DNA of 64,000 nt, taken from positions 496,001-560,000 of the forward strand of contig JAPEUD010000005.1 in the NCBI GenBank assembly GCA_026026165.1. Direction: 5' to 3'. The notes beneath the pieces are model-generated. The model saw only the letters and a program-made list of their open reading frames with translations. It ran no database searches and was not told the DNA's origin. How positions within the stretch are numbered: position 1 is the first letter of the stretch; the number at the start of each line of letters is the position of its first letter. This document shows, piece after piece, positions 53,180-60,576 of this stretch. The translations under genes were made by a program, and so were the position numbers. Source of the DNA: Sarea resinae. Lineage: Eukaryota.

Positions 53180-53858
53180 AGCGATTCTCCGTGACCAGAA
53201 ATCTAGCTAGATAGCGCAAATCGTTCCAGAGCGAGCGAATAGGCAGACGTCCAAAGCAGGCCGACTGCTGCTCAATGCAATGGAGGCAGCGTAGCGCTCT
53301 CACTCATTCACGCTCAAGCACTTGAATCGACTCGATACCGAATCCCCATCCCCCGTTGCGTATGGCACAGCCACAGCGACTCGGAAGCTGAAGAAGTGAT
53401 CGCTGTATGATTGTAGTTGTCGAGCCGAATTCGAAGGTTTCCGATGCCACCAGTGGACTGCACTTGGGAAAATCCTCGGAATGTGATGCGGGGAGCGGAA
53501 GAACCGTTTCGCCGTGTGTTGCATGCGTCGATCTCTGATGTTATGGAAGGTACTGCACCTTAGTGCTGCTTCCCGGGTGGTACCTGCTGAATACTGTGCA
53601 GTACTACAGTAGATCTCCAAATGCCTGTAGACCGCGCCCGTCAAGTATCAATCTGTACTCCATCTCAACCTGCATCAGGTGCCTTTGCCCCGTGTACGCA
53701 TGCGAGGCGTCATCGCCGAGCTGTCCGTTGAAGATCTGATTCGGCGTCTCTGTTTTGGTATACTTGCTTCGAGCTGATCAGCCTTGCGAGCATGCGTTTG
53801 AGTTGCCCTTGGCCGTGGATGTGTCGCCGTAGCCGTCAAGAATTATCTGACCACAACA

Positions 53859-56232
53859 ATGAACCCGTCAAACTTCACTTTTCCGCCGCCTCCGCCGCCT
53901 CCTCCGAAGGCTGCTGCTTCAGGGTTTAGCGGGGGTGTTCCCTTCGTGCCGAATACTGGATATGCTGCACGAGGGTCTCGTGGTGGAGCTCCCAGAGGGC
54001 GCGGTCGTGGAAGTGGTGGACGGAATGTGAGAGATGGCCGTCAGTTCAGTGCAAGTTCCCATGGCCCTCCGCAATACGGCTTTCAAGGTCCGTCGCCAAA
54101 CGGCTTTCAGAATGAACATCATTCACAAAGGTCGGGCCCATACTCAGGCCCTCCTTTTCCGCAAGTCCCACAACTTCCTCCAAATTCACAACCCGCGTCA
54201 TACCCTCCACCACAACCTTACTACGGTCAAGCAGCACCTGTAGGAGCACCAAGCGGCCGTCCCCCGTTCGAGACTTCTTTTGGTCCAGGACCTAGATCTT
54301 CTCCCTACAATCCGGTCCCACAGCAGGTTTCAACGTTTGCAAATAACTATGCTCCGTCAGCTTGGATGCCTCCTCCACATACACAGCCGTACCCCCAACC
54401 ACCAGTGATGGGACCACCGATAAGGATGGGCTTCGATAGAGATCATCTCCCGGACGGCATACTCCGACAAACTGGCCAATTTACACAGACTCCTCCGAAC
54501 CCGTTCCCAGGACACCATAGTGACCAACCACCAGCAAAAAGAAGGCGTGGTCAGTCCAGTACATCTCACACATCACCCAGATTGGTGAGACCAGCAGCTG
54601 CGCCTGCTGTTCCAAGTTTCGGTCTCCCACTGCCTGCGAAGCCTCCAGAAACGAAGAACAAAAGAAAAAAGAAACGAAATTACAATCTGCTTGGTCTGAC
54701 ACCACGAACCGAAGAACATGAGGAGAGTGAGGAGGAAGAAATGGACGAGGAGGCGGCTTTTGCCAGCAGGGAACAGAAAGAGTATGCTTATCTCGCACTC
54801 AAGTTATACTTATATTGATACCCTTTACTATAGACTTCAAATCACATACAAGGGCCAAACTGCCACGCTCAGCAACGACGCCGACCTAGCAGCCTGGATT
54901 GAAGAGCGCAAGAAGCGATTCCCTACCAAAGCACGGATCGAAGCCAAAAAGGCCGAACTCAAACAACGCCTGGAAGAAACCAATTCTAGAAAGAAAAACT
55001 ACCTCAAAGGCGTCGATAAGCAACGAAAAGACAAAATGCCCCCTAATCAAGCTTCCGTTCTTAATGCAAAGGCCCAAGCCTTCAGAGAAAGACGCAAAAC
55101 AAAGAAACGAGAGAACCGCGAGCGTGTCAATGCCTTGCTTGGCGAAGTCGAAGACTCACTCAACGCAACTACTGCAACTCATACAGTAGGCGAGAAGCGA
55201 AAACGGACAGCTTCCGTCGGCAAAGCCGCTCTCGACGACGACGCGACCTCCTCATCAGGATCCTCCTTCAATGAAGACTCAGCGTCCAGCGGAGGTGACG
55301 AGGACTCCGCATCTTCCGACTCCGAACCAGAGGAATCCTCCACCCGCCGCAGTGCTCCCGAAAAAGTACCACCACCCAAACGCGAAAAACGTGGCCAGGT
55401 TTGCCGTCAGTTTCTACAAAAGGGCTTCTGTGCACGGGAACGTGGAGGAAAGCATTGCCCTTTTCTACATGAGTTACCCGGGCGAGGTAACAAGGACAGG
55501 GAGAGAAATCGAGATAAGACAAACAACACCATGGAGACGAATCTGAATGGTAGTGTTGGCGGCGACAAGGGAAGGGCAGGAAAGAAAGTGAGGCCTAATC
55601 AGGCTCAGAGGAAACGGCTCTATCAACGTGTATGTCCCGCCCCTGGGCATTTTCATCTCTCTGCTGTATGATGATTTTTGCACTTACTGACTGGTTCGAT
55701 CTGGATTCAGCTCCTTGATGTCGACATCGAAAAAGACAACCTGCGCGTTCTACAAGCTATCAGATATCTCGCAGAACATGGCGTACTAGAAGCTCAATCT
55801 GAGGATAGTCTGGAGCCAAGAGGCGATCAAAAGGAAAACGAGGCAACATCGAAAGATGACCCTGCTCCGAGCTTGGTCGAGCCGGTCACCACGACTATGA
55901 ACAGTTCCATGACGGCCGAAGATGCAGCTCGGAAATCCTCCGATGGGTCCTCTCTCCATTCCACCAATGAACCTGATCTACAGCATTCGGTCTCGTCTTC
56001 ACCTCCGCCTGCGCCTGATCCCACCCCGGCTCCCGCTGTTACTTTCACCTCTCATCCCAATTTTCTCGCCACCGCCATCGCGTCTGACACGTCCCCTTCT
56101 ACCTTTAGATCGACATCCGGCCCTTCTCCCACTCTTGATTCTACCCCTACTTTTCCTTCACATTCTACATCTCCAAGCGATCTTCCAGCCTCCTCAGCAC
56201 CAGGATCGGCGCCTTCACCACATACGGCATAG
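53859..56232 (+). CDS. NUFIP1/Rsa1-domain protein with a CCCH zinc finger (box C/D snoRNP assembly factor-like)
   Basis: Pro/Gly-rich N-terminus; LQITYKGQTATLSNDADLAAWIEERKKRFPTKARIE (NUFIP1-like); CRQFLQKGFC...HCPFLH; RLYQR|LLDVDIEKDNLRVLQAIRYL; introns 54782-54833 and 55630-55710. Confidence 0.82.
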
Positions 56233-56559
56233 GTACTTCTACGCCTTGCTGCGATCTCAAATACCAGCATATATATCTCCGTCTTTGCCTCCTATCCTTT
56301 GTTTAGCATAACCAGAGCACATATTCATTTTTATCTGTATCTTTATCTCACCGTAGCCTCTCGATTGTAGGTTTAGTGCAAAATGCAGCGATTAGGAATC
56401 CCTCAGTCAGAGTCAATCAAATAGTGGAAATAGCATATCTTACTTTCATCCTCTCTTAGGCAGCTTTTCGGGATCGAGCCATGTATACTTGTGTCCGAAA
56501 TCTTGTGATATCTCGTTCCAATCTTGAATATCGTTGTCGATTCATTTGCTTCTCGGTCC

Positions 56560-58145
56560 GGATATTCACCCCTCGGCCTCCCTCCCCGGACCCCGGCTCT
56601 TCTTATTTCGAACAAAATTCGTCGAACGTCTCAGAGCCAACACGTCGCGTCTCCCCAATAGCTTCTAGATAGACTGTTTACTTCCTCGAGGATTCTGATT
56701 GGCTCCGATATAAATCAAAACATACAGATAAGCACCTGATAAGCAGCCGCGTCACGCTGATAATCGGATATTCATAGTACCTTATACACTCATACTTGTG
56801 GTGCATGATTTTGGAAACTAATGTCTGGAATCCCGAGTGCTATATTCACTGGCGACTCTTTGCCTCCTATCACCTACTTCTGCATTTCGAACAAAAATCG
56901 TCGAACGTCTCAGTGCCATCACGTCGCGTCTCCCCGACGAGCGTCTTTTGCCTGCCTGCTTCTTCTTGGTCTCCCATTGGCTGCGATACCAGATCAAAAC
57001 AAAGCGATAAGAAACCCATTTCACGTACGCGTGCCGTGGTTTGGCATTCACCACCCGCAAGATGCCTTCACCATTACGGCGCGCCTCTTCTTATTTCGAG
57101 CCAAAAATCGTCGAACGTCTCAGGCCCTCCGCGTCGCGTCTCCCCAGCGGCGTCTGGGTCGACTGTTTACACCTTCTCGAACACTGATTGGTCTGTTGGC
57201 TTCATCAAAACAAACCGATAAGCGGTCGCGTCACGTTGATAAGGGATCGAATCTTTTCATTGAATTCTTATGATAGGCTGGAATCCCGTGGCTTTTGATG
57301 CTTTTAGAGGTTCACGTACTACCCAGGTGCTTTATGCACGAGGTTTATGATTTCGAATCTTATATTCATAAACGGCCCCCTTCTTGATGACGGGACCCAC
57401 TCATTTGATGACCCGCCCCTTTTTCTGAATTTCAAGCAAGAACCGTCGAACGTCTCAGACGTAAACCTGTCGCATCTCCTCAACCCCGCCTATAAAGACC
57501 CAAAATCCCCTGGGGCCTCTGATTCATTTTTCACGCCTGACCAGAATCAACGGACACCTACCTACCTAAGCAGCCCCATCACGTTAGAAAAAGACTAACC
57601 ATGATTGTAGGTGGGAAGCAGAAGCAAGCCCCAGATCAGGGTATCTCCTAGTGAGGGACTATCCAGGTATTCATTCGCACATTCACTCCCTGCGAAAATC
57701 TACCATCTGACCAGCCTCCGGTATTTTGAGCAAAAAATCGTCGAACGTCTCAGCCAGACTCGGCGCGTCTCCCCAGAACCTCGTTCTACACCGTTGACCT
57801 CTCCTAGAGCTCTGATTGGCTTACCAGCAGCTGAACACAACAAAGGGATAAGAAAATCACGTCACGCTGATAAGAAAGCAGTTAGGCATAGAATTGAATC
57901 ATGCCTTACGCACCTGGGGGTGTGAATGATATCTCCTAGGTGCACCTGCGAGTGAGGTGATCCATTTCGGGACTCACCACTTTCCGCGCCCATTTTTGAT
58001 GGCGACCAATTAGGTCGGCTTTGGCGTTGACTCATTTCAGGCCCATTATCGTCGAACGTCTCAAGCAGGTCCGGCGCGTCTCCCCGGCGGAGGCTTTACC
58101 TCTTCGAACGCCGGAGCAAAACAAACAATCGCGTCGCGTCCCCTT
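56560..58145. repeat. Array of six degenerate ~210-335 bp non-coding units with invariant CGTCGAACGTCTCA core
   Basis: Core starts at 56620, 56899, 57109, 57444, 57739 and 58050. Each is followed 11-13 nt later by CGCGTCTCCCC (variant in unit 4), then by CTGATTGG, CAAAACAAA..GATAAG and TCACG..GATAA blocks, variably degenerate. Confidence 0.95.
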
Positions 58146-58703
58146 CACCGAGAGTGGGACTGTTCGTCGCCATGACAGGTCTCGATTCTTTGGGAACAAG
58201 GAATATATATAGCTTACCTTTATGGGATCTTTGGAAATGGTTGCTATATTCATAGATCGTGTTTACGATGCAGGCCCAAATGATCTGCCTCATCACTTAT
58301 AGGGTATCACTGATCAAAACATCGGAGGAATTCTACCATATAGACCTGTTTGATTGCTGCGTTTAGTATTTTTGTGTCTGTGGACACTTATGCTCTAGAT
58401 CTCTAGTCATGCGGACCCGACCTTGACCCGACTTTTCATTTTGCTATCCGCGCGTGTGTATTTCATTAAACAGCAAAAGGTAAGATCCGAAATATTCGTT
58501 GATATCGTTATTGTGTAGCTGATCGTACTGCAAGAAGATGACTGAGCTTCCCGGGAGCGGATTCGTTTTCTCGTTTCCTCAACCCCATCTGTTTGAGGTC
58601 ATTCGATAACCCTTCAGAGCCAGCACGAACTTTCTGCATCGGCCTGTATACTGTTCCCCTATTGAATAGGAGAGAATTGCCGTATCTTTCCACCCAGCTA
58701 GGC

Positions 58704-60576
58704 TTATGCCAGTCGAGCAGCCACAGCTCTCAACTTCTTCCATTCCGGCTCCAGGTCTTGGTCGCCCACGCTCTTGCCATCACCCCTAGACATATCCACG
58801 CGCACCTCATTTGATTTCCCCCTCACCATCCGCGCAAACGCACTAACCTCACCATGGCTCTTCCCCATATTTCCTTCGACCTCTCTCAAAAGACCCCAAA
58901 CAACTTTGCCGTAATCGATTTCGAACGCTTTTAATTCGTCTACTTGGTCCGGCTGCTCGACAGAGAGACCAGCAACGTGTAAAATCAAAATTGCGAGCGT
59001 CCAATTATGCACCACGCGCACGGGATGGAAGCTCTGCGGAAAAAGCACGGGATCAATGTAGAAGTAAATGAATAACATGTGTCCCAGGGCTTGTGTCCAA
59101 TTCCCCGTGGAGATACACGCGATGGCGTATTGTTGGCGTATTGACGGCCAGGGTTGGCGATATATGGGCCAAAAGCTGGACGAGCCAGAGAAGAGACGTA
59201 AGCCTGACGCCAGACGGAAGTGTAATTCTTCGTTGTCAAGGACATGTTTGGCCGATTCCAAGGTAGAGAAGCCGGCAGCTTCGGTGGCGCGGACGAGAGC
59301 GCTGTCTGGACCTACGTCGGGTTCCGAGTCTGAGTCTTCCTCGTCGGGAGCTGGTGTGAGTATAGCATCTTCCTTGCCACTAGTGCCCTTTTTGCATTTG
59401 GCACAGGTGCAAGTAAAGAAATAGCGGTCTTTAAGATCGGACTGGCGACGCGCAAATGGATTGGTGCAGTCGATGTAGGAAATGCTGACTTCTTCGTCCT
59501 TGGCGAGGGGTCTGAGGGTGCGGACGTAGAGGCAAGGGCCGTCAAAGGTGACGACGGAATTATAATCGCAGGAGTGATTGATGGATGCTGCGAGTGGATC
59601 GACGCAGATGCCTATTGGGTCGAAGGTTGGGGTGACGAGGGTTAGGCTGTTCGTCAAGATCTAGACATGAAGTCAGTCTCTGCTTTTGATAAGAACGGAA
59701 AATTGAGTACTCGGCCCATCATTGCCTGGACATGAGCTTCGGACATGTCGGTCCCAGAGTACATCTGGGCGCCTTTGCTCATTAGAATCAAATTCTCCCA
59801 TTTCTCACCGCCAGCCCGACGGAAGTCGTAGGTATGATCTTGCAGCTTTTCAAATGCCGCCCACCATTCTCCCGATAGGCCCTTCTTTTGAAGTAAGAGG
59901 AGCTGGATGACGCCACGAACAGCAGTTGGCAAGACATTCGGATGGAGTCGGGCGAAGAGCTTGCACTCATGTTTATGATGGCTTTTCCATGCCTGGGTTT
60001 GGCAATCCTGAAGTATAGATCAGAGAGGGTCTTCGCATAATGAAAGCATGTTGAACAGGAATGTCGCAGTTGTCTTTCTTCAGCAGAATAACCAATACAC
60101 GAAATGCAGATGCTCTAATAAAATAGATATATTTGAGGTTTTAAAGTCATCTATTGCGTCGCTGTAGGTCTTAGACTTGACGAAGTGTGATTTGGAACAA
60201 TAACAAGAAACGATGCCACAAGTTCACTATCTGCACCAATACCGTTGAGGTGCAGCATATGCAGAACAAAAAGGCAATGATCATAACATAGTGAGCTCAC
60301 CTTGCTACAATAACCCACCACCCGACATCCAGTGCACGTCTTCAACGTCACGTCATCGAGATGATGGCCGCGGCTCCCAATGGCCGACCTAGGCAACCAC
60401 GCGAAGCAATTAGAGCATGTCTCTTTCAGACGGGCAGAGTCCGGGATCACAAGCAACGGCCGCGCTATGGACAGAACAACCTCGCCAGGCGCGAGGTCTC
60501 TAGACGCAAAGAGGCCGGCGCCGGTGCCTGGGGAGGGAGCCCTGTAAGTGTTGCAGGTGTCCGGGGCGGGTTCCAT
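58704..60576 (-). CDS. SET and MYND domain (SMYD-type) lysine methyltransferase
   Basis: GAGLFASRDLAPGEVV; MYND CSNC...CTGCRVVGYCSK|DCQTQAWKSHHKHEC; SET motif ASINHSCDYN; EEVSISYID; post-SET YFFTCTCAKC. Confidence 0.93.

Follow-up and report, generated by a model that had tools for sequence, protein, structure and literature searches.

The array at positions 56560 to 58145 of the window, which is the whole 64-kb stretch of DNA that was analysed, is best explained as a six-copy cluster of a DNA cassette centred on a candidate protein-binding motif of about 30 bp. Judged from its sequence and distribution, this motif is very probably a protein-binding site at the level of DNA which is kept by selection, and the original prediction of a protein-binding platform was supported in this predicted form. 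By analogy with known systems, a licensing function like that of a replication origin is tentatively proposed as its most likely job. Literature searches by exact motif words and by topic, in which subscription journals were mostly not covered, gave no description of it; the exact words returned plant or moss papers only. The motif is apparently an undescribed cis-element.

Structure of the six-unit array

Exact copies of the 14-mer CGTCGAACGTCTCA were located at 56620, 56899, 57109, 57444, 57739 and 58050, with periods of 279, 210, 335, 295 and 311 bp between consecutive copies, in agreement with the original prediction of six identical blocks. When up to two mismatches were allowed, 7 matches were obtained in the window against a mean of 0.5 in shuffled sequence, and a count of 7 was reached by 0 of 100 shuffles. 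A degenerate pattern of the core recovered the same six array sites and nothing else in the 64 kb. All six units have a single orientation (minus strand) and are without an inverted partner. Unit 1 of this family of about 200 bp extends from 56560 to 56763 (core 14-mer at 56620-56633), unit 2 from 56840 to 57039 (core at 56899-56912), unit 3, the type unit, from 57044 to 57242 (core at 57109-57122), unit 4 from 57360 to 57590 (core at 57444-57457), unit 5 from 57670 to 57873 (core at 57739-57752) and unit 6 from 58030 to 58145 (core at 58050-58063). Direct reading confirmed that the accessory blocks of unit 4 are degenerate, with the core intact, and that unit 6 is without the CCAAT segment.

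The blocks claimed to surround the 14-mer were likewise read directly from the sequence: a TTTCGARC-A-tract, CGCGTCTCCCC, CTGATTGG, CAAAACAAA-GATAAG and TCACG(C/T)TGATAA, together with ATTCAC upstream. The spacers ahead of CGCGTCTCCCC measured 12, 12, 12, 13, 11 and 11 nt in units 1 to 6, which are the three lengths on which conservation at the nucleotide level had been argued; this conservation and the non-coding nature of the sequence were both supported.

On the minus strand of the window the motif consists of (C)TGAGACGTTCRACG, a purine (R), an A/T tract (W5) and finally G..C.AAA as a weaker tail, which together span about 30 bp. In the type unit it was placed at 57094..57123 (minus strand) with a position matrix from 240 sites, and it is the sole part of that unit common to unrelated loci. 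The remaining blocks of the type unit also lie on the minus strand. A GGGGAGACGCG block at 57135..57145 is family-specific and resembles the core minus its TT; a GTAAACA block at 57164..57170 varies among units and fits the Forkhead consensus RYMAAYA (PMC5308776). The CCAATCAG block at 57184..57191 is a CCAAT box. In all 20 aligned units of the window family it precedes the GGGGAGACG block by 44-46 nt, as judged by eye, and this distance is kept although the sequence in between diverges. Distal blocks TTATCA, CGTGACGCG, CTTATC (GATA-like) and TTTGTTTTG occupy 57206..57242; resemblances to GATA-, HMG- and MCB-type sites are presumed for them.

The array is flanked by two convergent genes, a NUFIP1-family gene (PF10453) on the plus strand (53802..56232), which stops at 56232, and on the minus strand a gene with a SET domain (PF00856; 58704..60639), which stops at 58704. 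The predicted gene pair stood, except for the MYND domain, which was not detected in the scanned exons of the SET-domain gene. Between 49938 and 56232 the gene order cys3, Rpc25, NUFIP1 seems conserved, and in database gene models from other fungi cys3 is joined to domains of NUFIP1 or Rpc25 (P0051, P0082, P0086, P0090). Homologues placed the host among the filamentous ascomycetes.

Distribution of the motif in the genome and in a second fungus

The search for dispersed copies proposed in the original prediction found them genome-wide, and the unit proved not to be confined to a single locus. A scripted search, in which units were selected by the core plus the GGAGACGCG block, yielded 26 copies of the window unit at 10 loci; since the units were picked by those blocks, their genome-wide invariance at core and GGAGACGCG is partly by construction. 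With the unit as query, BLAST found 21 matches besides the unit itself; they are spread over 9 contigs and are 69-91% identical. Units of this family form arrays of 3-6 on contigs C54, C83, C89 and C100 and occur elsewhere as singles or pairs.

The 14-mer at up to one mismatch had 247 matches in the 25.5-Mb assembly versus 13 for a reversed control, and two tighter degenerate patterns had 67 and 168 matches versus 8 and 3 for their controls. A sample of 788 kb, made up of the window and 80 further regions that surround listed sites, amounts to about 3% of the genome. Its regions were selected for the presence of a site, and it contained 240 sites at up to two mismatches, on which the position matrix is based. 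Weaker copies crowd the strong ones, with 34 copies of at least 18 bits within 1 kb where 0 were expected, and are rare at larger distances (5 in 614 kb). From partial lists, the number of motif loci was estimated by hand at about 110-130, or one per 200-250 kb. Their distribution is irregular; the region 175.6-886.0 kb of contig C1 (710 kb) is without a match to the tight pattern. A viral scan gave 6 single matches, about the chance number by estimate.

The motif occurs singly, in direct arrays, in inward pairs and in alternating orientations, and unrelated unit families have just the core in common. Direct arrays of unrelated core-bearing units were found on C51, C82, C65 and C109, an alternating array of up to 17 cores on C79, telomere-adjacent arrays on C59 and C137, and a pair on C7; on 3 contigs clusters lie 0.1-1.6 kb from telomere repeats. 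Two unrelated arrays stand back to back on C143. An element with terminal inverted repeats (TIRs) was considered there and rejected, as the two arms are unrelated unit families with the motif alone in common. The common object is the core and not the unit. The claim that short motifs are retained in an old local amplification was supported.

Substitutions within the core are position-specific: G11>A was found at 32 loci, C10>T at 4, C13>T at 10 and G14>A at 3. The CpG at core positions 6-7 is almost fixed and was changed to TG or CA at 2+2 loci. This pattern is unlike symmetric CpG decay.

Inward pairs were found at 19 loci (19 of 80 clusters), with 32 distinct spacings below 130 bp, mostly 50-93 bp and none below 50 bp; at 50-53 bp the two motifs overlap by their tails. 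The spacings showed a period of 10.25 bp, with p values of 0.002 in the Rayleigh test, 0.007 under a jitter null and 0.017 as the median with one value per locus, in a set of loci that are partly dependent on each other, as are those of the context statistics below. A reversed CCAAT box (ATTGG) was present 35-41 bp into the motif at 14 sites, representing 9 distinct loci of which some may have shared ancestry, versus 1, 3 and 1 in the controls. GTAAACA directly precedes the core at 3 loci.

Gene context was evaluated with coding calls from a crude hexamer gene model. Predicted coding sequence holds 1 of the 80 clusters. Coding segments within 1.5 kb of clusters faced them with the 3' end in 78 cases and with the 5' end in 25, compared to 698 and 821 for control points; at stricter thresholds the 3':5' counts were 54:17 and 42:15, and those of the controls 465:476 and 297:251. 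Where genes were called on both sides (n=36), 20 clusters were in convergent, 14 in tandem and 2 in divergent gaps. Single-orientation clusters in tandem gaps (n=18) were counted by hand from the first context table, in which 32 of 87 clusters were uncalled; 11 were co-oriented with transcription and 7 opposite to it. This lack of polarity argues against a polar terminator. Two large direct arrays, L078 (C51) and L076 (C100), apparently lie between divergent ORFs and are exceptions to the 3'-end rule.

A metagenome scan for inward pairs, which detects paired sites only, returned 10 loci. Three of these are fungal and lie on two contigs of one assembly, which carry 8 and 14 matrix hits, clustered in gaps where the neighbouring genes converge; the motif copies are more degenerate than in the present genome. 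A protein flanking one cluster is 78% identical to a Pleopsidium protein. Its best match in the present genome is about 30% identical to it and at most 32% identical to any of 120 homologues; from these values, for a match that may not be a strict orthologue, the second fungus is taken to be distant from the host. The flanking gene on the other contig is ascomycete. This fungus looks like a distant Acarosporales-like lichen fungus, as judged from its sequences. The other 7 of the 10 loci (L089, L091, L092, L095-L098) were set aside as bacterial or as single perfect inverted repeats. Among them, low-GC bacterial contigs carry repeated perfect palindromes with a core variant (L095/L097:5000-5074; L096:12-78 and 770-788), and the palindromes of L096 flank an IS200-like Y1 transposase (PF01797) in a REP/RAYT-like arrangement. 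That they resemble the fungal core is probably coincidence, brought out by the pattern used in the search.

RNA, mobile-element and boundary explanations

A cluster of small RNA units, as the original prediction had offered, is very improbable. Under that reading each unit would be a small minus-strand ncRNA gene with CCAAT/GATA promoter elements and a Sm-site-like ATTTTTG after the core. This tract does follow the core in the window family and promoter-like boxes lie upstream; in addition, low-depth contigs of RNA run X2 apparently derive from two other motif loci, the inverted arrays L035 (C54:166 kb) and L021 (C56:692 kb), as compared by eye. From the latter it follows that some arrays may lie in 3' UTRs, or that the library contains DNA. 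Against an RNA product, Rfam at E<=10 gave two chance matches to the array sequence with a best E-value of 1.6, and compensatory change was seen in 0 of 13 predicted pairs across 20 units. The tract is any A/T run genome-wide, often AAAAA, and the motif orientations alternate. An RNA with a Sm site was rejected on account of this free W5 tract and the pairs without compensation. ARAGORN predicted no tRNA in the window; across 60 loci it predicted a single tRNA gene, which is 2.4 kb away from the motif cluster. Contigs of X2 cover both flanking 3' ends (56003-56398 and 58339-58997) and none spans the array, an outcome which in low-depth metatranscriptome contigs (share 0.09, depth 2-7) cannot show absence; runs X3 and X4 gave nothing on the array.

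Decay without function is also improbable, if slightly less so. The units would then be old solo-LTR-like or promoter-like duplications whose blocks persist by chance or gene conversion, in line with their 69-91% identity, their local amplification and the partly constructed invariance of core and GGAGACGCG. The 14 positions invariant in 6 of 6 window units oppose this (about 1e-5 per position at a retention of 0.87 per copy, by estimate), as do the occurrence of the same core in unrelated flanks and in a distant fungus and the asymmetric substitution spectrum. A more serious contender, though still unlikely, is that the motif serves as the cis recognition site of a mobile system, either REP/REPIN-like or non-autonomous rolling-circle. 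Cargo units would keep the motif because it is needed for copying, arrays would be products of mobilisation, and the 3'-end bias would mark where insertions are tolerated. Many unrelated unit families are amplified locally around the core, the window unit is dispersed at 69-91% identity, and pairs start with TG, finish with CA and can form hairpins. Furthermore, a module of about 260 bp that ends in an inward pair had 28 matches in AT-rich, CpG-poor repeat blocks, and because such mobile repeats carry the core pair the mobile or selfish reading was kept alive. The predicted option of a decayed mobile element likewise keeps some weight because the core pair sits in these repeats, in which it decays as fast as its flanks; in the window no TIR pair bounds the units. 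Neither target-site duplications, at pairs or otherwise, nor sharp unit ends were seen by eye, unit ends being fuzzy, which together with the missing TIRs speaks against a MITE. No tRNA-like head with A and B boxes, as in a SINE, was detected by ARAGORN or Rfam. All-against-all BLAST of the 788 kb revealed few shared flanks besides small families, and Helitron_like_N (PF14214) had 0 matches in the genome in a search whose control also found none. Position-specific tolerance, fixed CCAAT spacing and the motif in a distant fungus are hard to obtain under neutral decay.

Bacterial REP, REPIN and BIME sequences are extragenic repeats that lie behind genes, alone, as inward doublets or in larger arrays. 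The present motif shows the same arrangements behind genes; it differs in its eukaryotic host, in the lack of an HUH transposase match for PF14214 (control also blank), in pairs that match in the motif alone, in helical phasing and in co-occurring boxes of transcription-factor type. Protection of motif CpGs in RIP-like repeats had been considered on the basis of 15 CpG per 112 motif bases versus about 0.3 per 100 elsewhere, and was rejected as ascertainment, since among 12 aligned copies the first motif CpG was intact in 8 and a flanking CpG in 9. In locus L171 (positions 970-2950, C133) a motif-bearing module of about 0.9 kb lies between inverted, 99% identical arms of about 250 bp with TG/CA-type ends and a nested 187-bp inverted repeat, in an AT-rich, CpG-poor block. 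At the start of C65 (L123:130-400) a mutated, stop-broken remnant of a copia-type integrase was seen by eye beside an LTR-like end.

Rather unlikely, on the whole, is binding of a boundary, architecture or roadblock factor, e.g. a TFIIIC-like factor at ETC sites or a general regulatory factor, which would insulate telomeres, repeat blocks and the 3' ends of convergent genes. GTTCRA lies within the core and shows the G/A tolerance of a B-box centre (PMC3945215, supplement 12), and ETC sites are a form of extended B-box that acts as a barrier (PMC12409998). The positions at 3' ends, beside telomeres and in repeat blocks would fit as well, as would the co-occurring CCAAT box. The flanks of GTTCRA differ from those of a tRNA B box (C before, CGR after), so that the core of a TFIIIC B-box or ETC site was found without the tRNA-type flanks; there is no tRNA at the sites apart from the distant one noted above, and the 11 co-oriented versus 7 opposite clusters give no polarity. 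The centre GTTCRA/TYGAAC is identical in the motif, in TFIIIC B-box/ETC sites (PMC12409998) and in the GC-ACS TYGAAC of Pichia pastoris, whose approximately 107 GC-ARS loci are similar in number to the motif loci (PMC3945215). According to PMC3945215, the Pichia GC-ARS differ from the motif in being depleted in convergent gaps and tied to promoters, and in their flanking bases. Identity with the GC-ACS was rejected on grounds of these flanks, of motif sites without tRNA and of the opposite gap preference. To the eye, the GC-ARS fragments in supplement 12 of PMC3945215 resemble tRNA genes in reverse complement, whose B box holds the mutated TYGAAC; the main text nowhere speaks of tRNA.

Resemblance to replication origins

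Origin-like licensing is preferred, tentatively, to these alternatives. In Saccharomyces cerevisiae the ARS combines an A/B1 site with an inverted B2 element, and early origins are assisted by Forkhead proteins. The motif resembles this ARS (PMC11344781, PMC5308776) in its intergenic position, its bias to convergent gaps, its bipartite site of about 30 bp, its nearby RYMAAYA-type sites at some loci and, in part of the clusters but not in the window's array, an inverted partner at a periodic distance of mostly 50-93 bp. Origins of S. cerevisiae are enriched in convergent intergenes (PMC3945215), and in yeast A and B2 lie 41-91 bp apart, with maxima that recur every 12-13 bp (PMC11344781), as compared to a period of about 10.3 bp for the motif. 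Further differences are the GC-rich and far more invariant core, the large direct arrays and the several-fold sparser loci. The analogy with an origin was drawn because of the convergent-gap bias, the inverted partner sites and the Forkhead-type sites. Weighing against it are the sparse and irregular loci, the base-reading Orc4 helix that is not expected in this group, the partial fit to the Yarrowia consensus, the differing period, the overlap of motif tails in pairs at 50-53 bp, the single orientation of the six window units and the decay of the motif pair in the AT-rich repeat family.

Following this analogy, one sequence-specific factor would bind the motif on duplex DNA, and the two motifs of a pair would be bound either one after the other or on the same face of the helix. 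Accessory sites of CCAAT, GATA and Forkhead type may help to keep the DNA open. ORC-Cdc6, or its recruiter, could then bind the motif and load the helicase as in a budding-yeast origin, with inward pairs taking the role of the A and B2 elements. The motif is proposed to mark a subset of strong origins and not all of them, at most a subset being conceivable because of the irregular density of about one locus per 200-250 kb.

Filamentous ascomycetes are considered to have origins that no particular sequence defines (PMC7560902 and PMC3730340), and according to PMC7560902 neither the Orc4 helix that reads bases nor the Orc2 loop occurs beyond the Saccharomyces group. In the present genome, the matching stretch of Orc4 is Ser/Ala-rich by eye and no base-reading helix was seen there by eye; the Orc4 gene (L099:3-902) encodes two AT-hook-like RGRP motifs in the N-terminal part. 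Of somewhat lower probability than the licensing function itself is the more specific proposal that a GC-rich, near-invariant 30-bp motif, common to distant filamentous ascomycetes, specifies strong origins. The motif would have undergone repeated amplification, in direct arrays and in inverted arrays with phased spacing, and heterochromatin repeats would have taken it up; ORC-Cdc6 would read it in a new way, or via a dedicated recruiter, without the yeast Orc4 helix. TA skew was +0.091±0.026 in 104 segments toward the sites and -0.015±0.032 in 45 segments away from them; GC skew showed no difference.

The motif is not filed as an ARS, despite seeming to work most like the yeast ARS, because only part of what characterises an origin was found in it. 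The intergenic position and 3'-end bias of origins were found, and their density and regularity were not; neither a full match to a known ORC consensus nor, by eye, a base-reading Orc4 helix was detected.

Two further published motifs were compared. The ORC-Cdc6 consensus of Yarrowia lipolytica, ATNNNXXNCCNRWNNANNNNNNNYA (bioRxiv 10.64898/2026.03.10.710760), is likewise about 25-32 bp long with a C-N-R-W centre, an A/T stretch behind it and then a 3' pyrimidine-A element. The motif matches it at the C-N-R-W part only; the AT element on the 5' side of the consensus, its CC and its YA are misaligned, and the Yarrowia motif is much more degenerate. The TACRGAGTA motif of Pezizomycotina (PMC3730340) is also information-rich, multi-copy and intergenic in filamentous ascomycetes, but has another sequence, measures 9 bp and is enriched upstream of genes, not at 3' ends.

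Yarrowia has 623 EdU peaks, compared to the low density of motif loci here. Its consensus shows that sequence-specific origins can exist outside the Saccharomyces group. As a mobile site of REPIN type or as a boundary element, the motif would equally be a eukaryotic cis-element without previous description. A defined candidate makes the question of origins in filamentous ascomycetes directly addressable by plasmid assay, and if the origin reading is true, a compact autonomous replicon for fungal genetics would be possible.
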